In this document: positions 43,263-55,182 of the stretch, in pieces | How positions within the stretch are numbered: the stretch's first letter is position 1 | Layout: the number at the start of each line of letters is the position of its first letter | Assembly: GCA_046733215.1 (NCBI GenBank) | Contig: JBKPOS010000129.1 | Coordinates: 158-64,157 of the forward strand | Direction: 5' to 3' | Length of the DNA: 64,000 bases | Source: Gemmatimonadota bacterium | GTDB lineage: Bacteria; Gemmatimonadota; Gemmatimonadetes; Gemmatimonadales; GWC2-71-9 | Made by a program: the position numbers and the translations under genes | The notes under the pieces: generated by a model | Databases searched by the model: none | What the model was told of the DNA's origin: nothing | Seen by the model: only the letters and a program-made list of their open reading frames with translations

Positions 43263-43377
43263 GCCGCCAGCGACCGGCGGCTACATGGTGGCCGCGTATG
43301 TCGTAGCGGCGGCGATTCTGTTGGGGTATTTCCTGTCGCTTCTACGACGAGCGAAACGGATACTGCGTGAACGGTGA
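43252..43377 (+). CDS. ccmD: Heme exporter protein D-like small membrane protein
   Basis: 41-codon ORF not in the track: MPAEPPATGGYMVAAYVVAAAILLGYFLSLLRRAKRILRER. It has one TM followed by a basic tail, overlaps the ccmC end, and sits in the canonical position. Confidence 0.65.
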   Translation: MPAEPPATGGYMVAAYVVAAAILLGYFLSLLRRAKRILRER

Positions 43378-43435
43378 ACGGTAAACGGGGACTCCGCCGA
43401 TAATCGGAGCCCCCGTTCACCGTTCACTGTTCACG
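43366..43435. repeat. Heptamer-built long palindrome (copy 1) between convergent ccmD and KAS genes
   Basis: Left arm TGAACGG TGAACGG TAAACGG, core GGACTCCG-CCGATAAT-CGGAGCC, right arm CCGTTCA CCGTTCA CTGTTCA. About 31 paired positions with 2 mismatches and one G-T. It contains the stop codons of both flanking genes. Confidence 0.8.
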
Positions 43436-44675
43436 CTGTTCTTCGAAACACCAAGCTGGCGTTAATCCCACCAAAGCCGAACGAATTGCTGAGCACGAAT
43501 TCCGGCCGTGCTTCGCGCCCGTCGCCCCGGATGTAATCCAGATCGCACGCGGGATCGGGTGTCTCGAGGTTCACGGTCGGCGGAAGCCACCCGTTGCGGA
43601 GCGACAACGCGCAGATCGCGGCCTCAATGGCGCCGCTCGCACCGAGCGCGTGGCCGTAGTAGCCCTTGGTCCCGCTCAAGACAAGTCGATACGCATGGTC
43701 GCCGAATACCTGCTTGATCGATGCGGTTTCGGTGGGATCGTTGAGCGGAGTCGAGGAGCCGTGCGCGTTGATGTAGCCGATATCGGCCGGAGCCACGTGG
43801 GCGTCCCTGAGCGCGAGCTGCATCGCCCTCGCGGCCTGACGCCCGTCCGGCCGCGGCGCGGTCATGTGGTACGCATCGTTGGTGAGTCCGTACCCACACA
43901 CCTCCGCATAGATCGGCGCTCCTCGCGCGAGGGCCCGGCCACGCTCTTCCAGCACGAGCACAGCGGCTCCTTCGCCCATAACGAAACCGTCGCGCCCACT
44001 GTCGAAAGGACGACTGGCCCGCTCCGGGTCCTCGTTCCTCGTGGACATGGCCCGAATGATGGCAAAGGCTCCGAAACAAAGCGGCGCGAGTGGTGCCTCG
44101 ACGCCGCCGGCGACCATAGTGTCGGCATCTCCCCGTACAATGGCGCGGAACGCTTCGCCGATTGCGATGGTCCCCGACGCGCAGCTCATCCCGTTGGTCG
44201 AGTTCGGCCCGGTGAGCCCGAATTCGATCGCCACATTGCAGCTGGCGGCTCCCGCGAAGACCATGAGGGCCAGGCTCGGATCGACCGCTCTCGGGCCGCC
44301 ACGCAGGAACTCGGGATACTGTTGCTCGGCGAACGCTACGCCACCCAACGCGGTGCCCATCATCGCTCCCACCGTATCCCGGTCTTCGCGAGCCAATTCA
44401 ATGCCGGCGTCGAGCAGCGCCAGTCTGGTTGCGGCGACGCTGAATCTCCCGAACCGGTCGAGCCGGCGGGCTCGACGTTCCTCCAGATGATCCGTCGCGA
44501 CAAAATCGTTCACCTGCGCTGCGATGCGGCTCTTGAACGGCGTGGGGTCGAACCGGGTCACGCACTGCACTGCCGAGCGCGATTCCTGGAGACCCGTCCA
44601 GAGCTGTTCTGCGCCAGTCCCGATCGGTGTGATTGCTCCTATACCGGTAATGACAACCCTGCGTAGGTCAGGCAT
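43431..44675 (-). CDS. Beta-ketoacyl-ACP synthase I/II family condensing enzyme
   Basis: ATG at 44675 (MPDLRRVVITGIGAITPIGTG). Active-site Cys in GMSCASG. Two His in YINAHGSSTP and GYYGHALGASG. Confidence 0.88.
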   Translation of the reverse strand: MPDLRRVVITGIGAITPIGTGAEQLWTGLQESRSAVQCVTRFDPTPFKSRIAAQVNDFVATDHLEERRARRLDRFGRFSVAATRLALLDAGIELAREDRDTVGAMMGTALGGVAFAEQQYPEFLRGGPRAVDPSLALMVFAGAASCNVAIEFGLTGPNSTNGMSCASGTIAIGEAFRAIVRGDADTMVAGGVEAPLAPLCFGAFAIIRAMSTRNEDPERASRPFDSGRDGFVMGEGAAVLVLEERGRALARGAPIYAEVCGYGLTNDAYHMTAPRPDGRQAARAMQLALRDAHVAPADIGYINAHGSSTPLNDPTETASIKQVFGDHAYRLVLSGTKGYYGHALGASGAIEAAICALSLRNGWLPPTVNLETPDPACDLDYIRGDGREARPEFVLSNSFGFGGINASLVFRRTA

Positions 44676-45129
44676 ACCCGTTCTCCACTGCGTGGCGGAT
44701 GCCTGCCAGCGTGCGGGAGGCAATCCCGTGAATGAACACCGGTCCAATTATCAAGTTGGCGGCGATAGTCCCAACCAAAGGCCATCGCGGCCCCGACCAT
44801 TCGTGTACGATCGATACTTCCGTGCCGTTGCCGTTCCGTACCATGCGCCACTCCACATCCATCCCGGTGGTGACGCCCCGCACATGGCGGTAGCGAATTG
44901 CGGGGCTCTGCGGGTCGACCGTCATTTGCGAGACCCACCACGTGGGGTACTTGACGGGGCCGAACGGCCGCCAGGCCGCCATTTCGACCAGCGCGCTGCC
45001 ATTGTCGCGCCTGAGCACCCGAACCCAGCGATAATGCCGCAACAACTCGGGCCACCGCTCCACCGCGGAAGCCGCGTGGAACACTCGCTCCACCGGCGCA
45101 CGCATGAAGAGACGATCAACCGTGCGCAT
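44668..45129 (-). CDS. SRPBCC (polyketide cyclase/dehydrase and lipid-transport, START-like) protein
   Basis: 153 aa from the ATG at 45129. The SRPBCC-typical start is RAPVERVFHAASAVERWPELLRHY. 8-nt overlap with the KAS start. Confidence 0.7.
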   Translation of the reverse strand: MRTVDRLFMRAPVERVFHAASAVERWPELLRHYRWVRVLRRDNGSALVEMAAWRPFGPVKYPTWWVSQMTVDPQSPAIRYRHVRGVTTGMDVEWRMVRNGNGTEVSIVHEWSGPRWPLVGTIAANLIIGPVFIHGIASRTLAGIRHAVENGYA

Positions 45130-45827
45130 CAGGGCACGCCCGGCGCCCAGGTTGCCACGAGACGCCAACCGGGTCGTCGAGCCACCCGCGCGGATACACC
45201 GGCGCGCGCGAGCAGAGAAGCGAGCTCCGACGGTGTAAAACCGCGGCGTATCGATGTCATGCCATCGGCGCGAGTGACGGGGTCGAACCGGAGCAGGCGG
45301 GCCCCCCAACTGAAGGCAAACATCGCGAGAGGCGCCCGGCGCAAATCAGTGATGATTACTGCGCGGCGGGCGATGCGATCGCAGGCCCGGAAGAGCTGCA
45401 CCACAGACTCCGGCTCGAAGTGATGCGCCAGCATGCTTACCGCGACGAGGTCGACACTCTTCTCCGCGACCGGCGGCGCACCGGCACAGCCCACGATCAT
45501 CGGGAGCCCACGCGACCGGGCCTGACGCGCAGCCGCAGGATGGCGATCCAGGCCGATTGGCACGAGCGCGATGCCCCGCCGCGCCGCCCATCGTGCGGCG
45601 GCGCGGGGGAGGTCACCCAGGCCGGATCCCAGGTCGAGTAGAGTGAGGCTCGTGCCCGGAGCGAGACCCCGAAACACCCGCGACAATCCGAAGCGCAACG
45701 CGGAAGCACCGCCGAACCACCGGTTGGATCGCGCAATGTTCCGCAGCGATTCCGCCACCAGTCGGGAGTCCGTCAACGGATCGTCGAGAAGTTCGGCGCC
45801 GAGCCGTCGAACCGTGAGTTCAGGCAC
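45129..45827 (-). CDS. Class I SAM-dependent methyltransferase
   Basis: GTG at 45827, two nt after the flavin reductase stop. Motif I LLDLGSGLGD. The upstream part of track ORF 45129..46379 is out-of-frame overlap with the neighbouring gene. Confidence 0.75.
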   Translation of the reverse strand: MPELTVRRLGAELLDDPLTDSRLVAESLRNIARSNRWFGGASALRFGLSRVFRGLAPGTSLTLLDLGSGLGDLPRAAARWAARRGIALVPIGLDRHPAAARQARSRGLPMIVGCAGAPPVAEKSVDLVAVSMLAHHFEPESVVQLFRACDRIARRAVIITDLRRAPLAMFAFSWGARLLRFDPVTRADGMTSIRRGFTPSELASLLARAGVSARVARRPGWRLVATWAPGVP

Positions 45828-45829
45828 GT

Positions 45830-46306
45830 TTATTCGAATGCGCCGTAACCGCCGCGGTAGTAGAGCAGCGGACGACCGTCCGCCGTCGAGCCGGCAACCA
45901 CACGCCCCACGACGATAGTGTGGTCGCCCGCCGCGACTGTATTCTGCCTCACGCACTCTATGTGCGCGAGCGCACCCTCCAGCAGGACGCCACCGTACTG
46001 GCCCGGATGGTATCCCACGCCGTCGAAGCGATCGTCGAACGGGTCCGCAAAGCGACGTGATAGCTCCTCCTGATGGCTCGACAAGATATTGATGACGAAG
46101 CGATCGGATCCCACCAGCAGATCGTGCATCGCAGCGCCGTGGTCGATCGCCACGGAAAGGAGTGGCGGACGGAGTGACACGGATGCGAGACTGTTTGCCG
46201 TCATTCCGTGTGGCCTGCCATCGGGCGCCGTCAAGGTGATGACCACGACGCCGGTGGCGAAGCGCCCAAGCAGCTGCCTGAATTGCGCGTCGTCTACGTC
46301 GGGCAC
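45830..46306 (-). CDS. Flavin reductase-like (NAD(P)H-flavin oxidoreductase) domain protein
   Basis: FRQLLGRFATGVVVITLTAPDGRPHGMTANSLASVSLRPPLLSV is the flavin reductase domain core. GTG at 46306 follows the upstream stop by 2 nt; the track start at 46336 is the alternative. Confidence 0.8.
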   Translation of the reverse strand: MPDVDDAQFRQLLGRFATGVVVITLTAPDGRPHGMTANSLASVSLRPPLLSVAIDHGAAMHDLLVGSDRFVINILSSHQEELSRRFADPFDDRFDGVGYHPGQYGGVLLEGALAHIECVRQNTVAAGDHTIVVGRVVAGSTADGRPLLYYRGGYGAFE

Positions 46307-46308
46307 GG

Positions 46309-47535
46309 TCAGAGCACCATGCGCGCGAGAAACCACGGATTGAGGACTCGGCGAGTCGGCACAAAATTCCCCGTGACACCGATCAGCGTGTCAGCCATTC
46401 CGCCTCGGCGACCGAGCCGACCGACTGCACGGTCGAACAGGGCGGGCCAGATCATCGCGTAGCCGATCAACCGCTCCACCGCCCATTTCCCTGCAAACGC
46501 GTGCCAGCGCGCGCGAGTGTAGCCGCGCAGGCGTGCCCCGGACACGATGCCGGGCACTGAGAGGCTACGGGCCGCGTGCTCGGCGAGCAATTCTGCTCCG
46601 CGCAGCGCACTACAGATCCCTTCTCCGGTAAACGGATCGAAAAATTCGGCGGCGTCGCCCACCAGGGCAGCGCCATCAACTACCACGCGCCGCGACCGCG
46701 CGGCAAACGGTCCGGTAGCCAGCACCTGACCCACGAGCCTACCCCGCTGTACTCGCCCTCGGACGTCGGGAAAGCGCTCGAGCTGGGAAAAGAAGAAGTC
46801 GGCAAGTCTGCCCCGAGCCCCTCTCGCTACGGCCGCCGGGATGACGAGGGCGACGTTCGCCAGGTTGGTGTCCACTCGATTGAGCCCCACGTAGCCTTCG
46901 GTGCTGACATGCATCTCCGCCGACTCACCCAGCTCGGCCACGTCGCTCAGATGTGCCACCAGTGCAACTCTGCGAAGCCGGCCATGGGAGCGCAGGCCGA
47001 GTCGTCGGGCAACCGTTGAGCGAAGCCCGTCGGCTCCAACCGTGAGGCGGGCCCGGATGACTTGGTGCCCCTCCGGCCTGCGCACCAGTGCACCGGTGAC
47101 GGCTCCGTCCTCGATAAGCATCTTCTCTAGCGCGGTTTGCTCGAGCAACGCAACTCCCTCGCTCCGTGCGCGCTGCACCAGGTGCTGATCGAGAACCCAG
47201 CGGGTGACCGAAAGCCCGGTAGAACGCGACGGGGCGGGGCGGGCACGCGCGAATAGCCCATGGAGCCGGGCGCCATGAGGCCCGCGTACCACTGTTCCTG
47301 CCAGTGCCTGTGCGCCGCCCAGCTCGAGCTGCTCGACCACGCCGAGGCGGTCCAGCAGGCGAACGGTTTCAGGGCTCAGATACTCGGCACAGGGCTTGTC
47401 GCGGGGGAAAGAGGCACGGTCGATCGCCACAACATGGAAGCCTTGCCGCGCGAGAAATGCGGCGGTCGCAGCGCCGGCCGGGCCGGCGCCCACGATCAGC
47501 GCATCGGTCGAAAGCTGCGGCAGCTCAGCCGACAC
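46309..47535 (-). CDS. FAD-dependent oxidoreductase, geranylgeranyl reductase family
   Basis: Dinucleotide fold DALIVGAGPAGAATAAFLARQG, GADGLRSTVAR, GDAAEFFDPFTGEGI. GTG at 47535; the track start at 47616 is the alternative. Confidence 0.8.
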   Translation of the reverse strand: MSAELPQLSTDALIVGAGPAGAATAAFLARQGFHVVAIDRASFPRDKPCAEYLSPETVRLLDRLGVVEQLELGGAQALAGTVVRGPHGARLHGLFARARPAPSRSTGLSVTRWVLDQHLVQRARSEGVALLEQTALEKMLIEDGAVTGALVRRPEGHQVIRARLTVGADGLRSTVARRLGLRSHGRLRRVALVAHLSDVAELGESAEMHVSTEGYVGLNRVDTNLANVALVIPAAVARGARGRLADFFFSQLERFPDVRGRVQRGRLVGQVLATGPFAARSRRVVVDGAALVGDAAEFFDPFTGEGICSALRGAELLAEHAARSLSVPGIVSGARLRGYTRARWHAFAGKWAVERLIGYAMIWPALFDRAVGRLGRRGGMADTLIGVTGNFVPTRRVLNPWFLARMVL

Positions 47536-47950
47536 GGGAGAACTCGTCCGAATCGAGTCGTAGAACGTCGGGGCTCGGGAAGCTGTAGTGAAGATCGAAA
47601 GTGATGGCCATCCCAACCCCGGCGTAGGAGACCGTGATCGTGGTGGAGGTCGCAGTCCAGGTGCATGGTCGGTCGCTGCTGTTTTCGATGCCGTCCGTAA
47701 TCGAGAGGAAAGACTCGAGGCAGGCGCCGTCCGGGTCGAACCGCCACGTGATGGTCTGGACCGTACTCGGCATGAGTCCGGTCACGACCCCGCGCCAGCT
47801 TCCGATCAAGGCTGGAGGATGAGTCGATGCGGGTGGCGGCGGCTGGTCGCCGCCACCTGCAGGCAAAGGCAACCCGGCCGTGGGATTGGGCTCGATCGGT
47901 GCCCCTCCGCAAGCGGGCACAAGGCTCAGGTATGACCCAACCAGAGCCAC
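47525..47950 (-). CDS. Small hypothetical lipoprotein
   Basis: Lipobox SLVPACGG, then a Pro-rich linker and a ~90-aa beta-rich domain. Only the last ~140 aa of track ORF 47525..48658 are taken as coding. The start (GTG 47950 or a nearby TTG) is uncertain. Confidence 0.5.
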   Translation of the reverse strand: MALVGSYLSLVPACGGAPIEPNPTAGLPLPAGGGDQPPPPASTHPPALIGSWRGVVTGLMPSTVQTITWRFDPDGACLESFLSITDGIENSSDRPCTWTATSTTITVSYAGVGMAITFDLHYSFPSPDVLRLDSDEFSRVG

Positions 47951-48708
47951 GCTGCCCAACCGCCCAAAGCTGCGGCTGCGGTAGCGAGACCATTCACACC
48001 GTCGTTGTCCAGCCAAACAAATCCTCCCGTCGGGACGGTCGGTGTTCCGCAGCGATGCACCTGCCACTCGGACAGTTGCCCGCAGATCGGGCAGCGAAAC
48101 CGACCCTGCATCGATCCGCCCAGGGCGGAGTCCAGCAGCATCCCGCCGAAACCTAGTGCGGCCCCAGCGCCGAAGAGGGCCGGCTCCCGGCCCACCCAGG
48201 CGCCACTCGCGGCCACCAGGCTTGCACCGACCAATGCTGCCAGGCAGCCCAGCAAGGTGATGCCCCCGTTGGTACCCGGGGGCACCGATCGCCAAGTGAG
48301 GAGGTGACGTGGTGGGGTTCGGCTCCATGCACCAATTGCGGTAGCCCAGGTGTCCGCGGCGGCGGCGGCGAGGCTCGACGTCGCAATCCAGATCGCTAAT
48401 GCAGGCTCTTCCCGAGCCAGAAGCGCACCGAGCGCCGCCGGCCCACCATTGGCGAGGACCTGCCAATGATCGCGGCAATTCCCTTTGGGGTCGCTGGTGG
48501 GGAAGGGATCCTCGGGTTCGAGCCGGGACACCACGCTGCTCGACACGAAAAATGCAGCAAGAGCGGCCCCGCCGGCCCAGCCTGCGGCTACCAGGATCGC
48601 GGCCCCGACGAGAGTTGCAGCTACGGCACCGGCGCCGGTGAGCGCACGCGACTGCCATCCTGCAGCGGCGACGGCGGCAGCAAGCGCAACGTCAAGAAGG
48701 AGAGACAC
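47926..48708 (-). CDS. DUF92/TMEM19-family integral membrane protein with Cys/His-rich loop
   Basis: 260-aa polytopic Ala/Gly-rich membrane protein with a DUF92-like layout (TWATAIG, GGITLLG, LLDSALGGSMQ). It carries the loop RFRCPICGQLSEWQVHRCG. Confidence 0.6.
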   Translation of the reverse strand: MSLLLDVALAAAVAAAGWQSRALTGAGAVAATLVGAAILVAAGWAGGAALAAFFVSSSVVSRLEPEDPFPTSDPKGNCRDHWQVLANGGPAALGALLAREEPALAIWIATSSLAAAAADTWATAIGAWSRTPPRHLLTWRSVPPGTNGGITLLGCLAALVGASLVAASGAWVGREPALFGAGAALGFGGMLLDSALGGSMQGRFRCPICGQLSEWQVHRCGTPTVPTGGFVWLDNDGVNGLATAAAALGGWAAWLWLGHT

Positions 48709-48726
48709 GAGACCGCCGCGCGCGGC

Positions 48727-48984
48727 TCAGTTATCGGCGGTGCTGTCGAGTTCGGAGCGAAGTTCTGAAAGAATGCGGGCCTTCAGCCGGTCAGGGCAGC
48801 ATTGCCCCTTACCCTTGTGCTGAAGCATTTCGAGAAACTGCTTCTCGAATTGGAGGTGCTCGAAACACGGGCGGCACTTCTCAAGATGGTCGGTGATCTT
48901 GGTGGCGAGCTCCGGCGTGATCTCCTGCTTCAGGTAATCCTGCATCAGGGACAGAGCTTCGCGACATTTCGGGCCGCCGGCCAT
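48727..48984 (-). CDS. Zinc-binding anti-sigma factor (ZAS, RsrA-like)
   Basis: 85 aa with the H-x3-C-x2-C motif in DHLEKCRPCFEH plus extra Cys residues. Lies directly downstream of an ECF sigma gene. Confidence 0.82.
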   Translation of the reverse strand: MAGGPKCREALSLMQDYLKQEITPELATKITDHLEKCRPCFEHLQFEKQFLEMLQHKGKGQCCPDRLKARILSELRSELDSTADN

Positions 48985-49002
48985 CAGTTCTCTCTCATCC
49001 GG

Positions 49003-49581
49003 TTATTGCTTGATCGGGGCGCGATCGCGCGGACGGATATACCCCATCTCCACTGCGTGGTCGTAGAGCACCTCCTGCAGCTGACGACGAGCCCGGAAAA
49101 GCCGGGACTTGACAGTGCCGACGGGGATGCCGAGCACGTCTGCGATTTCGGCGTAGGGAAGATTTTCGATGTCACTCAGCACCAGCACCTCGCGAAATTC
49201 CTCGGGGAGTCGATCGATCGCATCGAGCACCTTTGCGTCGACAATCCGGGAAAAGAACGTGCCTTCGGGATCTTCGTCGTCCACCGCTCGAAAGGACGCG
49301 TGCGGCTCCGCGGTCTCGAGGTCCATCGGGATAGGCTCCCGCTGGCGCCGGCGGTAATCATTGATGAACGTGTTCCGCAAGATCGTGAACAGCCAGCTGC
49401 GGATGTTGGTTCCGGGCTGAAATCGCTGCCAGGACCGGAACGCCTTGAGCACGGTATCCTGGACAAGATCTTCCGCACGGCTGGGATCGGTCGTGAGCCG
49501 GAGGGCCAGCCGGTACAGACTATCGAGCTGCGGAATGACTTCCGCCTCAAAGGCCTCCCGGCCGGGTGCTGGGTCGGTCAT
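49003..49581 (-). CDS. ECF-type RNA polymerase sigma-70 family factor
   Basis: Region 2 DLVQDTVLKAFRSWQRFQPGTNIRSWLFTILRNTFINDYRRR and region 4 LPEEFREVLVLSDIENLPYAEIADVLGIPVGTVKSRLFRAR. Confidence 0.9.
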   Translation of the reverse strand: MTDPAPGREAFEAEVIPQLDSLYRLALRLTTDPSRAEDLVQDTVLKAFRSWQRFQPGTNIRSWLFTILRNTFINDYRRRQREPIPMDLETAEPHASFRAVDDEDPEGTFFSRIVDAKVLDAIDRLPEEFREVLVLSDIENLPYAEIADVLGIPVGTVKSRLFRARRQLQEVLYDHAVEMGYIRPRDRAPIKQ

Positions 49582-49698
49582 CCCGCAATGTTCCGGGGAG
49601 AAGGGCCCGGCGCAAGGACCCCTGGATGGGCCGCCCCGGAATGGCTAAGTTCCGCCCCGGTCTGGTGGCCCTGAACGCGTCCGCGACACCACCCTCCC

Positions 49699-50325
49699 GT
49701 GCCCGACTCGCCGCCGATTCCAGCTTTCCTTCCGCTGAGCCTGCTCGAGGCGCTCCGCAATCTCGACACCCCCGTCGAGGACGGTCTCGAAGCGATGGCC
49801 AGGGATATCGTCTCGCGACGGCTCGGCTTGAGCGATACCGTCGCCGCGCAGATCGAGCGCTACCGCCAGGCGACGCAACGCGAAGGAACCGTCACCGAAG
49901 ACGAGTTGGTCTCCGTGCTGCGCCTGGTGGGCCGGCGTCCCGATGCCCCGCTCGTCTTCGCCGATGCCGGCCGACGGGCGGCCCGCTATGCCGTGCGTGC
50001 CAACGGCGGCTCACGTGCGCTGGCCAAGGTATCCCCATGGGCCTTGGGTCGGGCGCTCGCCCGGCGGGCGGCCCGGCGCATTTCCGCCAAATGCTTCCGG
50101 GGAGAGCTCGGAGGAAAGGGGCCGGAAGCCGAGGTTCGCATGACCCGGCCGCTTTCGGTGAGCGCAATCTCTGACGGCAGCGCCTGTGCCTTCTACGGCG
50201 CAGCCTACGGCGAGCTCCTACGAACCTTGATCAACTTCGAGGGCACAATGGTGCACGAACGATGTGAGGGCAGGGGCGACCAGGCCTGCCTCTGGCGCGG
50301 CCAGCGCGCAGGCGATTACGAATGA
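49699..50325 (+). CDS. Hypothetical protein, possible V4R-type small-molecule-binding C-terminal domain
   Basis: 208 aa. The C-terminal CAFYGAAYGELLRTLINFEGTMVHERCEGRGDQACLW resembles the Cys pattern of V4R domains. This assignment is from memory only. Confidence 0.5.
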   Translation: MPDSPPIPAFLPLSLLEALRNLDTPVEDGLEAMARDIVSRRLGLSDTVAAQIERYRQATQREGTVTEDELVSVLRLVGRRPDAPLVFADAGRRAARYAVRANGGSRALAKVSPWALGRALARRAARRISAKCFRGELGGKGPEAEVRMTRPLSVSAISDGSACAFYGAAYGELLRTLINFEGTMVHERCEGRGDQACLWRGQRAGDYE

Positions 50326-51501: not shown

Positions 51502-52332
51502 ATGCGAACCTTCGTCGCGGCGGTCCTGGCCGCCGCAAGCCTCGCCGGCTCACCACCCGCCGCCCAGCTCGACGATCGCCTTGCATTGCGCGCCGTCCGC
51601 TTCTACCGGGCCGACCATCGCACCACCCGGGTCACTGCCTTTCTGGAGATCCCCTACGCAGCGCTGATAGACGGGCCGAACGGACCAGGATCGAGTTATC
51701 AGGTAACGGTTCGGGTATGGGACGCCGCCGGCGCTGCGCTTCATACGGAGTCGTGGACTGCCACGGTTCCACCCACGATGCAAGTCGGCGCCTCCGCAGT
51801 CGAGACGGTTGAGTTTCTGGTCCCGCCGGGTCGCTACAGGCTCGAGGCGATCGCGCACAACCTCTCCACAGGTCGCGAAGCCCGAGCGACCCTCGATCTC
51901 GAAGGCTTCGATCGTCCGCCTGCCGTTTCAGACCTGCTGCTCTCGCCCGGCATCCGATTGGTGTCTGCCGGCGACACCGTTCCCCAGCCCGGCGAGCTGC
52001 GGCGGGGTGGGGCGCTCGTCACTGCAGCAGCAATTCCCCGGCTTAGTCCCTCCCATTCAACAGCCCACTACCTGCTGGAGATGTACGCCACCGGAAATCA
52101 CGAAGAGGTCGGCAACATCAGCGTGTCGGTCCGCGACTCCACCGGTACGACGACGCTGCGCTGGCGGCCGGTACCGGTCCGAGTGCCCTCCGGCGGAAGC
52201 ACCCTGCACGGGCATGTGAGTCTCGCCGGGTTGAACCCCGGACGCTATACCCTGGTGGTGTCGGTGGCGGTGGCAGGTCAGACCAGCGAGAGATCGGCGG
52301 AGCTGGTGTTCGACAGGGTCGGCGCTTCTTAG
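51502..52332 (+). CDS. Hypothetical secreted protein
   Basis: Signal peptide MRTFVAAVLAAASLAGSPPAAQ, with beta-rich two-domain-like repeats (PPGRYRLEAIA / NPGRYTLVVSV). No family assigned. Confidence 0.6.
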   Translation: MRTFVAAVLAAASLAGSPPAAQLDDRLALRAVRFYRADHRTTRVTAFLEIPYAALIDGPNGPGSSYQVTVRVWDAAGAALHTESWTATVPPTMQVGASAVETVEFLVPPGRYRLEAIAHNLSTGREARATLDLEGFDRPPAVSDLLLSPGIRLVSAGDTVPQPGELRRGGALVTAAAIPRLSPSHSTAHYLLEMYATGNHEEVGNISVSVRDSTGTTTLRWRPVPVRVPSGGSTLHGHVSLAGLNPGRYTLVVSVAVAGQTSERSAELVFDRVGAS

Positions 52333-54149
52333 GGTTCCTCCGTCGCCCCGGTCTCGACCAGGAGATCTCCTTCGCGAAACTGATGCTGATAGAGCCGGGC
52401 GTACAGGCCGCCTCGAGCGAGCAGCTCGGAGTGACTTCCTTCCTCGACAATCCGGCCGTGATCCAGCACCACCAGCCGATCCGCGCGGCGGACAGTGCTC
52501 AGACGATGTGCGATGATGAGTGTGGTTCGGCCGGCCAGGAGCCGCTCCATCGCATCTTCGATGAGTCGCTCGCTCTCGGTATCCAGGCTGCTCGTGGCCT
52601 CGTCGAGAATCAGAACCGCGGGGTCCTTGAGCAGGGCCCGGGCAATCGCGATTCGCTGCCGCTGCCCGCCGGACAGCTTGACGCCGCGTTCGCCCACTAC
52701 CGTATCGTAGCCTTCCGGTAATCGTTGAACGAACTCGTGCGCGTGCGCCGCCTGCGCCGCTGCTTCGATGGCTTCCTGATTCGCATTGGGGCGGCCATAC
52801 GCAATGTTCTCGCGCACGCTGCCGCTGAAGAGCGCGGGTTCCTGCGCAACCACTCCGATCGCACCACGAAGGTCCGCCAGGCGCAGATCCCGGATGTTGA
52901 TCCCATCCAGCAGAATCCGACCCTCCCGCACGTCCCAGAACCGCGGGAGCAACGACACGAGCGTGGTTTTCCCGGCGCCAGAAGGTCCGACCAGCGCCAC
53001 GATTTCGCCCGGCGCGACGGCCAGGTTAATGTCGCGCAGCACCTGCGGTGCCGCGGGATCTGCCAGATACCGGAACGAGACCCGTTCGAACGTGACAGCG
53101 CCGCGGATCGGCCTGGGAAGCGATTTGGGAGAAGGCGGATCGGTGATGGGCGAGGTGGTCTCGAGCAGCTCGAACACTCGTTGGGCGGCCCCGACCGCCT
53201 CCTGGTAGCTGCTGAAAAACGAAGCGAGGCCACCGATCGCGGCTGCGATGGTCACCGTATACAGGAGAAACGAGACTAGCGCCCCCGGCGTCAGCTTGCC
53301 GTCGAGGACTAGGAGACCACCCTGCCACAGGACGAAGACGATGCCGCCGAAGGTGGCGAAGGTGAGCACGCCAAAGAACACTCCGCGCACCTCGGCTCGC
53401 ACCAGGGCCGCCCAGACACTCGCCAGTATACGGTCGGCGTAGCGCTGCCGCTCCGCCGGCTCCTGCACGAAGCTCTGCACCGTGCGGATCTGGCTCAGCG
53501 CCTCGTCGGCAACGGCGGTCGCCTCGGCGACCTTGTCCTGCACGCCCGTCGTCATCTTCCTCAACCGGCGGCCGAAATAGAAGGCAGAGCCAACAACGAG
53601 CGGAACCACGCCCAGAGCGGTGAACGTGAGGCGCGGCTGCATGTAGGTGAGCACCACCACGCCGCCGATGAGCGCCAGAGCCTGTCGCGAGAACTCCGCG
53701 ATCTGATGACTCATGACGCTTTGCAACAGGCCGATGTCGGTGGTCAGACGGCTGGTCAGCTCGCCGGTGCGGCGCTCTGCGAAGAACCCTGGCGGCATGG
53801 TGAGCAGCTTGTCGAAGAGCTCCCGCCGAAGGCCTGCCACCGCGCGCTCACCAGTGGCGCTCAAATAGTAGGTCTGAACAAAATTGAGCCCGGCCTGGAT
53901 CGCGAAGAGCGCCAGAAGCAGAAGTGCGATTCGATCGAGCAGCGAGCGGTCGTGGTGGAGAAACGCCGCGTCGAGCAGGTAACGCACGATCTGGGGAAAC
54001 GCCAAGCCGATTGCGGCACTGAGCAGCAACGCCAGCGTCGCCAGCGCCAGTCCGCCACGATAGGGGCGCACCCGGGGCCAGAGGCGGGCCAGCTGACCGG
54101 GCGCGGGGAGCCGCCGCCGGATGCCGGACACGGTAGGCTGGGCTGTCAT
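52329..54149 (-). CDS. Fused ABC exporter permease/ATPase (MsbA/ABCB-like)
   Basis: Six-TM domain, Walker A GPSGAGKTTLVSL, signature LSGGQRQRIAIARAL, Walker B VLILDEATSSLD. Confidence 0.9.
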   Translation of the reverse strand: MTAQPTVSGIRRRLPAPGQLARLWPRVRPYRGGLALATLALLLSAAIGLAFPQIVRYLLDAAFLHHDRSLLDRIALLLLALFAIQAGLNFVQTYYLSATGERAVAGLRRELFDKLLTMPPGFFAERRTGELTSRLTTDIGLLQSVMSHQIAEFSRQALALIGGVVVLTYMQPRLTFTALGVVPLVVGSAFYFGRRLRKMTTGVQDKVAEATAVADEALSQIRTVQSFVQEPAERQRYADRILASVWAALVRAEVRGVFFGVLTFATFGGIVFVLWQGGLLVLDGKLTPGALVSFLLYTVTIAAAIGGLASFFSSYQEAVGAAQRVFELLETTSPITDPPSPKSLPRPIRGAVTFERVSFRYLADPAAPQVLRDINLAVAPGEIVALVGPSGAGKTTLVSLLPRFWDVREGRILLDGINIRDLRLADLRGAIGVVAQEPALFSGSVRENIAYGRPNANQEAIEAAAQAAHAHEFVQRLPEGYDTVVGERGVKLSGGQRQRIAIARALLKDPAVLILDEATSSLDTESERLIEDAMERLLAGRTTLIIAHRLSTVRRADRLVVLDHGRIVEEGSHSELLARGGLYARLYQHQFREGDLLVETGATEEP

Positions 54150-54198
54150 TGTCGGAAAACTAATTCAAGATGAGCGCAGAGGCCCAAGCGAGAGGTTC

Positions 54199-55182
54199 TC
54201 AGCGGTGACGGTCGGGGGATCTGATTGCTTCCTGCTCGGGCTTACTCAGGATGAGAATGTTGGACGATCGATGCACCGATGCACCAGGCAGGTTGCGGTC
54301 GATCGCCATCGCCAGGAACAGCAGCGCCAGGTAGAGTAAGGAGTACCGGTACAGTCTCCAGGCGGTCGGCGTCACCCCCGACGTGCGGAGCAGGCGAATG
54401 CAATACCACAAGAGAGGCGCACCCAACAGCGCGGCACAGACTGCGTAGAACCAGCCAAACGCCCCGAACAACACCGGCATCAGGGTGAGCGGCAGCAACA
54501 TCATGGTATAGACGAGCATCTCGAACTTGGTGCGCTGTTCTCCACGGACCACCGGCATCATCGGGATGCCAGCCCGGGCATATTCGGCCCGCTTGATGAG
54601 AGCGAGAGCCCAGAAGTGCGGCGGAGTCCAGTAAAATATGATGGCGAAGAGATACAGCGCCGCGAGATCCAGGTGACCGGTCACGGCTGCCCAGCCGACT
54701 AATGGTGGAAAGGCTCCTGCAGCGCCACCGATGACGATGTTCTGCGGGCTGGACCGTTTGAGCCAGACCGTATAGACAAAGACGTAGAACAGCAGACCCG
54801 CTAGCGCGAGCTCCGCGCTCAACGGATTGACCAGTTGCCAGAACACGTAGAAGGAAATGACGGCCAGGCCTAAACCGAACGCGAGTGCAACCGGGGCCGC
54901 AATTCGGCCCGCCGGCAGCGGACGCAGCCGAGTTCGGGACATCTTGTCGTCGATGTCCCGGTCGAACCACATATTGATCGCATTGGCGCCCCCGGCCATG
55001 AGATAACCGGCGACGATGACCGTAAGAACCAGCTGCAGGGAAGGTAGCCCGCGATCGGTCACGAACATGGGCGCGACCGTGGTGACCAGGAGCAGCGAGA
55101 TGATGCGCGGCTTGGTGAGCGTCACCAGGTCGGCTGCCAGCGAGGGCCGGCGAGCATCCACGGCCTGGGAGGGAACCTCCAC
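54199..55182 (-). CDS. ctaB: Protoheme IX farnesyltransferase (heme O synthase)
   Basis: UbiA-family motifs: TLTKPRIISLLLVTT and NMWFDRDIDDKMSRTRLRPLPAGRI. Confidence 0.88.
   Translation of the reverse strand: MEVPSQAVDARRPSLAADLVTLTKPRIISLLLVTTVAPMFVTDRGLPSLQLVLTVIVAGYLMAGGANAINMWFDRDIDDKMSRTRLRPLPAGRIAAPVALAFGLGLAVISFYVFWQLVNPLSAELALAGLLFYVFVYTVWLKRSSPQNIVIGGAAGAFPPLVGWAAVTGHLDLAALYLFAIIFYWTPPHFWALALIKRAEYARAGIPMMPVVRGEQRTKFEMLVYTMMLLPLTLMPVLFGAFGWFYAVCAALLGAPLLWYCIRLLRTSGVTPTAWRLYRYSLLYLALLFLAMAIDRNLPGASVHRSSNILILSKPEQEAIRSPDRHR

Follow-up and report, generated by a model that had tools for sequence, protein, structure and literature searches.

A candidate phenolic-lipid gene cluster of soil Gemmatimonadales with an aromatase/cyclase-like protein and a FabF paralogue at the position of a type III polyketide synthase

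Introduction

In Planctomycetota, 58 of 96 genes that encode a type III polyketide synthase (PKS) stand at the end of an operon in which they follow the genes for a methyltransferase and a flavin adenine dinucleotide (FAD)-dependent oxidoreductase (PMC10896814). The type III PKSs of these bacteria make alkylresorcinols, and their operon equals the hierridin operon hidABC of cyanobacteria (PMC10896814, PMC8086630, PMC6836626), of which HidA methylates pentadecylresorcinol and HidB putatively oxidises or hydroxylates the ring (PMC6836626). We describe a cluster of nine genes (43431..49581, minus strand) in a window of 64,000 nucleotides, i.e., the whole stretch of DNA analysed, from contig C129 of a metagenome-assembled genome of the order Gemmatimonadales from soil (3.66 Mb, 94.8% complete). 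The cluster combines a methyltransferase and a flavoprotein of the kind found in these operons with a flavin reductase, a DUF92 membrane protein, a small lipoprotein and a sigma/anti-sigma factor pair, but in place of the type III PKS it encodes an SRPBCC protein and a FabF-like beta-ketoacyl-acyl carrier protein (ACP) synthase (KAS).

Two further groups of described pathways are close in their logic. The srsABC/agq alkylquinones, the prenylated methoxyhydroquinone of actinomycetes and the mycobacterial polyketide quinones arise from a fatty acyl starter, which is turned into a resorcinol lipid and then methylated and oxidised to the quinone (summarised in PMC10896814); these pathways use type III PKS enzymes, whereas the window cluster does not. 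The ketosynthase and aromatase pair DarAB/StlCD, responsible for dialkylresorcinols and stilbenes, takes ACP-bound intermediates of primary metabolism, sometimes without an ACP of its own, and DarB belongs to a separate ketosynthase class that has lost elongation (PMC6836626). The KAS and SRPBCC protein of the window would likewise be a two-protein ring-forming system fed by fatty-acid synthesis, although this KAS is FabF-like, unlike DarB.

In our reading, the window cluster would make a phenolic lipid with redox activity, by type an alkylresorcinol, a methoxyphenol or an alkylquinone, and KAS and SRPBCC protein would replace the type III PKS in its pathway; we give this reading a probability of roughly 45%. 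It is carried by the gene content, the co-inheritance of the genes, natural gene fusions and the homology of two of the proteins to type III PKS operon partners. An earlier note on the same DNA, made from the sequence alone, had seen here a stress-induced pathway that makes or remodels an unusual membrane lipid and had not recognised it as a described one. A specialised lipid-like metabolite is indeed the most likely product. As for novelty, the gene combination as a whole was not found in the literature searched, which excludes subscription journals, but the tailoring half of the cluster matches hidABC and the planctomycetal operons (PMC10896814, PMC8086630, PMC6836626).

Relation to type III PKS operons

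Protein families were assigned with Pfam and NCBIfam, and scores are given in bits against the curated cut-offs. When 151 sampled Gemmatimonadota genomes were searched for type III PKS (PF02797, E <= 1e-8), eight were found to contain one. The genome of the window has none at this threshold, nor does any of the nine proteins match the chalcone-synthase family. As it lacks a type III PKS, the enzyme by which the hidABC-type operon class is defined, the cluster lies outside that class. Two of the eight genomes, G153 and G173, carry operons for a methyltransferase, a flavoprotein and a type III PKS, and the comparison with the hidABC family was made through these Gemmatimonadota operons.

The flavoprotein of the window (46309..47535, minus strand; FAD_binding_3, 104 bits) is 31% identical to the flavoprotein of a Gemmatimonadota type III PKS operon (E = 3e-14). 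Its S-adenosylmethionine-dependent methyltransferase (45129..45827, minus strand; 232 aa; Methyltransf_11 and Methyltransf_25), which occupies a HidA-like position, is 32% identical to the operon methyltransferase of G153 (E = 5e-16). The same family models are recovered on both sides: the methyltransferases of the G153 and G173 operons score 201 to 203 bits on PRK06202 and their flavoproteins 113 to 120 bits on the geranylgeranyl reductase (GGR) subfamily model GG-red-SF, which are also the best models of the window proteins (PRK06202, NF004851, 136.5 bits, under its cut-off of 243; GG-red-SF, TIGR02032, 135.9 bits, under 158.8). In addition, the operon flavoproteins share the motifs PRxKxCG and GYVG with the window's enzyme. 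The homologues of the window's methyltransferase are 232 aa long as well. A PDB sequence search and a plasmid collection gave no match for it, and its homologue search gave only close Gemmatimonadales relatives with generic names. Some relatives of the methyltransferase match Ubie_methyltran.

G153 and G173 are without the SRPBCC gene. At their home locus, which extends from the V4R-like gene to ccmC, only the genes for the DUF92 protein and the flavin reductase are present; those for the GGR-like flavoprotein, the methyltransferase, the SRPBCC protein and the KAS are jointly missing. G174, a genome of the same genus, encodes the DUF92 protein, the lipoprotein, the GGR-like flavoprotein, the flavin reductase, the methyltransferase, the SRPBCC protein and the KAS, and no type III PKS. 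Such a pattern would be expected if one tailoring pair could receive its scaffold either from SRPBCC-KAS or from a type III alkylresorcinol synthase. In gene order, methyltransferase, FAD oxidoreductase and scaffold enzyme follow one another in hidABC and in the planctomycetal mtr-fdo-type III PKS operons exactly as in the cassette found in Gemmatimonadota outside the Gemmatimonadales (see below). One variant of the planctomycetal operon includes accessory lipoprotein genes (PMC10896814), comparable to the lipoprotein gene of the window. Judged by these similarities, the window cluster appears to be a variant of the methyltransferase-oxidoreductase-PKS alkylresorcinol operon in which an SRPBCC-KAS pair takes the place of the PKS, and to which flavin reductase, DUF92 and sigma/anti-sigma genes have been added.

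The flavoprotein had been placed by the earlier note in the geranylgeranyl reductase family, as the isoprenoid-type enzyme of the cluster. Part of this assignment stands: GG-red-SF is its best subfamily model (MenJ reaches 84 bits), all 15 sequences compared have P37, R38, K40 and C42, and C42, in a PxxKxCG(E/G) motif, aligns with the cysteine of the Thermoplasma enzyme 3oz2. However, the score stays below the GGR cut-off, EGYVGLNRV is found where 3oz2 has GYIWVFP, and the protein groups with the FAD oxidoreductases of methyltransferase-oxidoreductase-type III PKS operons. YxWxFP is the lipid-binding motif of GGRs, and WxWxIP is a motif of flavin-dependent halogenases. An isoprenoid role of the flavoprotein is doubtful, and the name "geranylgeranyl reductase family protein" here probably denotes a HidB-like ring-tailoring enzyme. 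A function as halogenase was also considered. Among solved structures, flavin-dependent halogenases match best (E about 1e-17 to 1e-18) and an archaeal GGR comes next (1.7e-14), and Trp_halogenase (PF04820) reaches 24.0 bits against a cut-off of 21, with no single stretch passing alone. This candidate was rejected, since the protein reads GYVGLNR where PDB halogenases show GWLWYIP or GWVWMIP. The neighbouring flavin reductase (45830..46336, minus strand; 168 aa; Flavin_Reduct, PF01613, 138.6 bits) has reductases of two-component monooxygenases (HpaC, HsaB and StyB type) as its best NCBIfam models, all under their cut-offs.

The SRPBCC protein and its KAS partner

The SRPBCC protein (44668..45129, minus strand; 153 aa; Polyketide_cyc, PF03364, 42.2 bits) is, by profile and by predicted structure, closest to the aromatase/cyclases (ARO/CYCs) of type II PKS systems. 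Searched against PDB, its profile finds BexL (2.8e-8), WhiE-ORFVI (4e-8) and TcmN (5e-7), within a range of 3e-8 to 8e-7, while the Coq10-like structure 1t17 reaches merely 0.019. In a Foldseek search with the AlphaFold2 model (pLDDT 87.3), eight of the top ten matches, which have TM-scores of 0.74 to 0.83, are ARO/CYC chains of WhiE-VI, TcmN or ZhuI with scores of 0.78 to 0.83, the remaining two being chains of the uncharacterised TTHA0849. In alignments of hidden Markov models (HMMs), TcmN and WhiE-VI have the same residues as the window protein at W26, Y33, W65, S67, M90 and W94, so that tryptophan, tyrosine, serine and methionine residues of the pocket are conserved. Invariant in distant relatives of the protein are W26, P27, H32, Y33, R34, M50, W65, H82, M90, W94 and H110. 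TcmN itself presumably uses R69 as catalytic arginine, with Y35 and R69 as pocket residues; the fold and the pocket tyrosine of this type are thus matched by the window protein, but its arginine column holds methionine. A TcmN R69A mutant is present among the PDB alignments.

Type II PKS ARO/CYCs work with a ketosynthase and chain-length factor (CLF) pair and an ACP. The SRPBCC protein of the window is likewise paired with a ketosynthase of the KAS I/II superfamily, but a single one, which scores as FabF rather than as KS-alpha; no second ketosynthase and no phosphopantetheine-binding protein was found among the nine proteins, and hence neither a CLF nor an ACP. A second ketosynthase was seen solely at the distant locus L179.

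The KAS (43431..44675, minus strand; 414 aa; N- and C-terminal ketoacyl-synt domains) reaches 525 bits on the fabF model TIGR03150 (cut-off 493.75) and 430 bits to solved FabFs. Another contig of the same genome carries the housekeeping set fabG-acpP-fabF, where the FabF, adjoining acpP and fabG, scores 605 bits; the cluster KAS is a paralogue for this reason. A phylogeny of cluster-linked KAS proteins places 19 of 20 in one clade (support 97/94), separate from six housekeeping FabFs. This clade shows changes around the active site, namely A110-L111 (G-I in the housekeeping enzymes), S165 before the catalytic cysteine, P196, HGSST, and I, V or F in FGFGGxN, while all 19 cluster KAS proteins compared retain C166, H306 and H343. 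Four of five genomes without the SRPBCC gene have a single fabF-class gene above the cut-off. By these sequence comparisons the cluster KAS is a dedicated, non-housekeeping paralogue, and an annotation as "FabF" should not be taken here to mean the housekeeping enzyme.

Conservation of the cluster

For the comparison with relatives, 20 loci were collected from three families within the order Gemmatimonadales. The search tally behind this set includes the unpublished genomes G005 and G008, just as the SRPBCC tally of the phylum survey given below includes the unpublished G086 and G124; no locus from any of these four genomes was used. The genes for the GGR-like flavoprotein, flavin reductase, methyltransferase, SRPBCC protein and KAS are colinear in all 20 loci, and DUF92 is present in 19. 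Two larger sets comprise the best 80 genome loci (one genome per species, all Gemmatimonadota) and 80 metagenome loci, the latter retrieved with more distant members of the SRPBCC family. Counting only loci with at least 600 nt of room beyond the SRPBCC gene, KAS follows immediately 3' of it in every one of the 75 genome loci and in 63 of the 68 from metagenomes.

Beyond the close relatives, ten loci were compared that include orders outside the Gemmatimonadales in the same class. In five of them (G065, G080, G113, G161 and G168) the unit consists of methyltransferase, flavoprotein, SRPBCC protein and KAS, in this order, with unrelated flanks that contain no fatty-acid or polyketide genes. G133 has SRPBCC-KAS alone and G140 SRPBCC alone. 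The same four genes recur at a metagenome locus of 50% GC (L234). The flavin reductase gene lies within the cassette in Gemmatimonadales only, and DUF92 stands outside it in the other orders. Natural fusions join the SRPBCC protein to the methyltransferase (P0124, 403 aa) and to a FAD_binding_3 flavoprotein (P0246, 520 aa).

Thus, the co-conservation by which the earlier note wanted the cluster to be judged is borne out, but its view of one nine-gene unit gives way to that of a nested composite: the SRPBCC-KAS pair forms the core, a four-gene cassette is found class-wide, and further genes were added in Gemmatimonadales. Lineage-specific add-ons are the sigma/anti-sigma pair and the lipoprotein. 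Of the 47 close genome loci whose upstream sequence spans 5.5 kb or more, 39 have the former as their first genes, whereas it is present in just 6 of the 20 relatives' loci (14 are without it). Both add-ons are absent from the cassettes of other orders. Homologues of the lipoprotein occur in five of the six sigma-bearing relatives' loci and in further loci such as L258, i.e., in part of the family only. DUF92 and flavin reductase may represent an older unit at this site that came to receive the cassette.

Of the 151 sampled Gemmatimonadota genomes, 101 encode a member of the SRPBCC family. A profile search of 1.84 billion representatives with the SRPBCC protein gave 433 clusters at E <= 1e-10, and relatives extend to Chloroflexota (a member of the Herpetosiphonaceae). 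DNA nearly identical to that of the window was found in soil and rhizosphere metagenomes from nine studies, with no RNA data set among the sequencing runs listed.

Several distant contexts of the SRPBCC gene fit phenolic-lipid tailoring. At L215 and L217 a convergent O-methyltransferase gene (Methyltransf_2) adjoins SRPBCC-KAS, and at L217 (L217:8001-12452) a UbiA-family prenyltransferase and an alpha/beta hydrolase are encoded nearby as well. This neighbourhood may belong to a prenylated variant of the product; with its O-methyltransferase and UbiA genes it resembles the prenylating variant among the srsABC/agq-type pathways. At L187 and L212 an ICMT/PEMT methyltransferase is encoded beside the SRPBCC protein. 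Locus L179 (L179:2614-10611, 59% GC) shows SRPBCC followed by two tandem KAS genes. Upstream lie a gene for a flavoprotein of the Trp_halogenase family (132 bits) and genes of phospholipid synthesis, and the locus may be a halogenating variant with a ketosynthase pair.

One aberrant locus, L153 in genome G061, contains genes for sigma factor, anti-sigma factor, flavoprotein, flavin reductase, a truncated methyltransferase and a KAS-like remnant of 35% identity; an SRPBCC gene is missing. Several genes there are split between frames, which could reflect gene decay or assembly error; the latter is possible since the flanking M24 peptidase gene is split too.

Proposed pathway and alternative explanations

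The chemistry predicted from these protein families is as follows. The FabF-like KAS would load a fatty acyl-ACP from the cell's own type II fatty acid synthase (FAS II) and extend it with malonyl-ACP without reduction. The SRPBCC protein would hold the beta-keto chain, block its reduction and steer cyclisation and aromatisation towards a resorcinol or pyrone lipid, and the two proteins would jointly replace a type III alkylresorcinol synthase. The HidB-like flavoprotein would oxidise or hydroxylate the ring, in Gemmatimonadales probably with reduced flavin from the inserted flavin reductase, as in two-component systems, and the HidA-like methyltransferase would methylate it. The DUF92 protein and the small lipoprotein would be accessories, and the sigma/anti-sigma pair, which leads the operon in this lineage, would make its expression respond to thiol or redox stress.

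More tentatively, and at a lower probability than that given for the pathway, SRPBCC protein and KAS together could be an unrecognised minimal PKS, in which a single FabF-derived ketosynthase without CLF and without an ACP of its own cooperates with an aromatase/cyclase-like partner and draws on acyl-ACPs of primary metabolism to build an alkylresorcinol or quinone scaffold, wired in soil Gemmatimonadales to a thiol-redox sigma switch. If true, resorcinolic and quinone lipids would have a third enzymatic route in addition to type III PKS and DarAB, and the cluster would show how a fatty-acid synthase paralogue can be drawn into making aromatic polyketides with no partner but a small cyclase. 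The thiol-redox wiring would suggest a stress-inducible membrane redox lipid, and the likeness of the regulatory pair to SigR/RsrA would give a testable idea of the lipid's timing. Considering the share of Gemmatimonadota genomes with the SRPBCC family, its relatives in Chloroflexota and the matching DNA in nine soil and rhizosphere studies, the product could be a common but unseen soil lipid.

A number of observations speak against a phenolic lipid made in this way. The cluster KAS scores as a bona fide FabF, and there is neither a CLF nor an ACP in the cluster; since this is so, non-reducing iterative extension is unproven. The column of TcmN R69 holds methionine in the SRPBCC proteins of Gemmatimonadota and varies in more distant relatives. 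The flavoprotein has kept the GGR-type cysteine, which would suit a C=C reductase too, and what the oxidoreductase of the planctomycetal operon does could not be established by those who studied it (PMC10896814). The complementary distribution of SRPBCC-KAS and type III PKS comprises three genomes of one genus, while G041 and G067 have both a type III PKS and the SRPBCC gene, the PKS of G067 being without an adjacent methyltransferase or FAD oxidoreductase gene. The methyltransferase gene is missing between flavin reductase and SRPBCC in 21 of the 80 metagenome loci. Finally, DUF92 and flavin reductase are retained without the core in G153, G173 and G154, and flavin reductase alone in G025; because both persist without the core, they need not belong to the pathway.

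Methyltransferase-flavoprotein pairs are also known from fatty-acid modification, where a methyltransferase and a flavoprotein reductase make 10-methyl fatty acids. By analogy, KAS and the SRPBCC protein, acting as isomerase, dehydratase or acyl binder, might make a special acyl chain that the methyltransferase and a GGR-like reductase, together with the flavin reductase, methylate and saturate at a double bond, giving a fatty acid with a mid-chain branch or some other unusual feature. The canonical FabF score of the KAS (525 against 493.75), its intact triad, and the GGR cysteine motif of a flavoprotein with a reductase partner would fit such a product. So would the dependence on FAS II, which must serve the cluster because no ACP, ketoreductase or dehydratase is encoded there. 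Nevertheless, we consider this explanation unlikely. The methyltransferase is of the PRK06202-type class I and not a lipid methyltransferase of the cyclopropane-synthase type, and where it is absent, in the 21 metagenome loci just mentioned, the flavoprotein stays behind as a reductase without its supposed substrate. Moreover, both proteins are homologous to type III PKS operon partners, and the nearest relatives of the SRPBCC protein are aromatase/cyclases.

The tailoring of an isoprenoid or a prenylquinone is a poorer fit still to the data. It would have the GGR-like enzyme saturate a prenyl chain, the DUF92 protein act as prenyl-phosphate kinase, the methyltransferase be UbiE-like, the SRPBCC protein be a Coq10-like quinone binder, and KAS be a mere neighbour. 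GG-red-SF (135.9 bits) and MenJ (84 bits) are indeed among the models that the flavoprotein matches, relatives of the methyltransferase match Ubie_methyltran, and a UbiA prenyltransferase is encoded beside SRPBCC-KAS at L217. DUF92, which we take to be related to the VTE6 prenyl-phosphate kinase family, was found in Synechococcus and archaea among 14 control genomes. However, the GGR and MenJ scores are all under cut-off, GYVGLNR replaces the YxWxFP motif of GGRs, and Coq10-like 1t17 is a far weaker match of the SRPBCC protein than the ARO/CYCs. KAS, the supposed bystander, is the most tightly linked partner of SRPBCC, DUF92 lies outside the cassette beyond the Gemmatimonadales, and the UbiA-family protein of the window itself is a heme O synthase.

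Just as improbable, in our estimate, is a DarAB-like route. Here KAS would couple a pair of thioesters derived from fatty acids, head to head, to a cyclohexanedione that the SRPBCC protein would aromatise, with no iterative malonyl extension. It would leave the tailoring logic unchanged, and there is the precedent of a ketosynthase and aromatase pair that works on ACP-bound intermediates from primary metabolism and in some cases has no ACP of its own (PMC6836626). On the other hand, the KAS is FabF-like and has kept both histidines of the decarboxylating triad, whereas DarB forms a separate class that lost elongation (PMC6836626).

That the nine genes are unrelated neighbours and KAS just a second housekeeping FabF is very improbable: flavin reductase and DUF92 do persist alone in some genomes, and part of the conservation is simple vertical inheritance because the flanks (the 208-aa protein and M24 peptidase on one side, ccmBC on the other) are conserved too, but other orders have the cassette among unrelated neighbours, fusion proteins exist, the four core genes were lost together and the KAS clade tracks SRPBCC.

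Sigma and anti-sigma factors

The first gene of the cluster encodes a sigma factor of the extracytoplasmic function (ECF) type (49003..49581, minus strand; 192 aa), with Sigma70_r2 at 69.8, Sigma70_r4_2 at 71.7 and the sigma70-ECF model TIGR02937 at 103.7 bits (cut-off 42.9), and no match to regions 1 or 3. The next gene encodes a soluble zinc-binding anti-sigma (ZAS) factor (48727..48984, minus strand; 85 aa; zf-HC2, PF13490, 32.6 bits, cut-off 22.2), in the translation of which C7, H33, C37 and C40 can be read. SigR-RsrA and SigH-RshA are thiol-oxidation-sensing pairs of an ECF sigma factor and a ZAS factor in actinobacteria, and their NCBIfam models are the top equivalogs for both window proteins: SigH_actino (TIGR02947) gives 165.7 bits, under its cut-off of 251.55, and RsrA (TIGR03988) 52.1 bits, under 62.5. 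The anti-sigma factor of the window is likewise small and soluble, with the H-x3-C-x2-C motif and an extra cysteine 26 residues before the histidine, a spacing which we take to be that of RsrA. The pair thus resembles the thiol-sensing SigR/RsrA type in sequence, although it scores below the equivalog cut-offs and comes from another phylum.

A GGAAT-N18-GTT-type promoter was not found at the locus. Neither the sigma gene nor DUF92 has an ECF-type promoter (GGAAC or GGAAT, 16 to 19 nt, CGT or GTT) upstream that could be found, and a scan of the window for SigR-type promoters gave two matches, neither of them near the cluster, against 2.9 expected by chance. Instead, the putative divergent promoter region (49582..49698), with the sigma gene on one side and the V4R-like gene on the other, contains the sequence TTGCGC-N17-AACATT, which stops 5 nt short of the sigma ATG. 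In many of 68 aligned upstream regions a hexamer (A/T)ACATT stands 5 to 6 nt before this ATG, with TTGCGC 17 nt farther upstream in many loci. This sigma-70-like motif suggests that the transcript may be leaderless. A GGAAC(A/T)TAGCC box in this region probably belongs to the divergent gene. The consensus scan of the cluster was uninformative, with one promoter-like site (0.9 expected) and six terminator-like sites (3.5 expected).

Co-transcription of the sigma and anti-sigma genes with those downstream is likely, because the 18-nt gaps on either side of the anti-sigma gene are too short for a promoter. Redox control of the cluster is plausible. Of the stress induction proposed in the earlier note, the best models of the pair are of the thiol-sensing type, both scoring under their cut-offs, but an ECF-like promoter was not found and the sole conserved upstream motif is sigma-70-like.

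Gene junctions, cluster boundary and neighbouring genes

Gene starts were refined from homologue lengths and reading frames. The third gene of the cluster is that of the DUF92 integral membrane protein (47926..48708, minus strand; 260 aa; PF01940, 184.7 bits; TIGR00297, 80.2 bits, under 205.85). It is followed by the gene of a small putative lipoprotein (47525 to about 47959, minus strand, with start codon TTG at 47959 or GTG at 47950), which has the lipobox-like sequence LSLVPAC and matches no Pfam or NCBIfam family. In operon order, from the sigma gene to KAS, the junctions are two gaps of 18 nt, overlaps of about 34, 11 and 28 nt, a gap of 2 nt, an overlap of 1 nt (ATGA) and an overlap of 8 nt.

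The description given in the earlier note is accurate in these respects. All nine genes lie on the minus strand, the HMM check agrees with the families named, the genes overlap (five junctions) or are separated by at most 18 nt, the anti-sigma factor has its zinc-binding motif with zf-HC2 above cut-off, the Cys-His-His triad of KAS is intact (C166/H306/H343), and the Pfam/NCBIfam scan of the nine proteins gives no ACP, ketoreductase or dehydratase. The palindromic element reported at the end of the cluster was recovered as well, as a hairpin at 43366..43436.

Upstream, a gene for a protein of 208 aa (49699-50325, plus strand) is divergent from the cluster and lies beside it in 20 of 20 relatives' loci, where it forms a conserved pair with the M24 peptidase gene. 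The protein matches no Pfam or NCBIfam model. A protein atlas groups it with "V4R domain" clusters (score 0.97), which we regard as a lead only; a V4R-like protein could be a small-molecule-binding partner or regulator. Farther away (52329-55182, minus strand), an MsbA-related ABC exporter (657 bits, under 780) and a heme O synthase (367 bits, above 246) are encoded, both syntenic in many relatives. The latter is the UbiA-family gene of the window; it had been considered as the prenyltransferase of the pathway and was rejected on account of this score.

On the other side, the cluster is bounded by the hairpin, which lies between KAS and the convergent ccmC gene, with ccmB and ccmC beyond it. 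The hairpin has a stem of 31 bp and a folding energy of -62 kcal/mol (z = -11.4), and is built of repeats of the heptamer GTGAACG. Throughout the genome of 3.66 Mb, 336 copies of its 15-mer arm GTGAACGGTGAACGG were counted at no more than one mismatch, compared to 0 to 1 for a reversed control, and the copies are often arranged in tandem runs and inverted pairs. From its sequence, the hairpin looks like a member of a dispersed intergenic hairpin family similar to repetitive extragenic palindromic (REP) elements. Short tandem repeat arrays were also seen at the intergenic site upstream of the sigma gene, where they differ between L071, L062, L064, L084 and L174 and include CAGGAGC-like, GAGAGGT-like and ATGATTGGGC-like types among others. 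Each lineage of the Gemmatimonadales may have its own intergenic repeat family.

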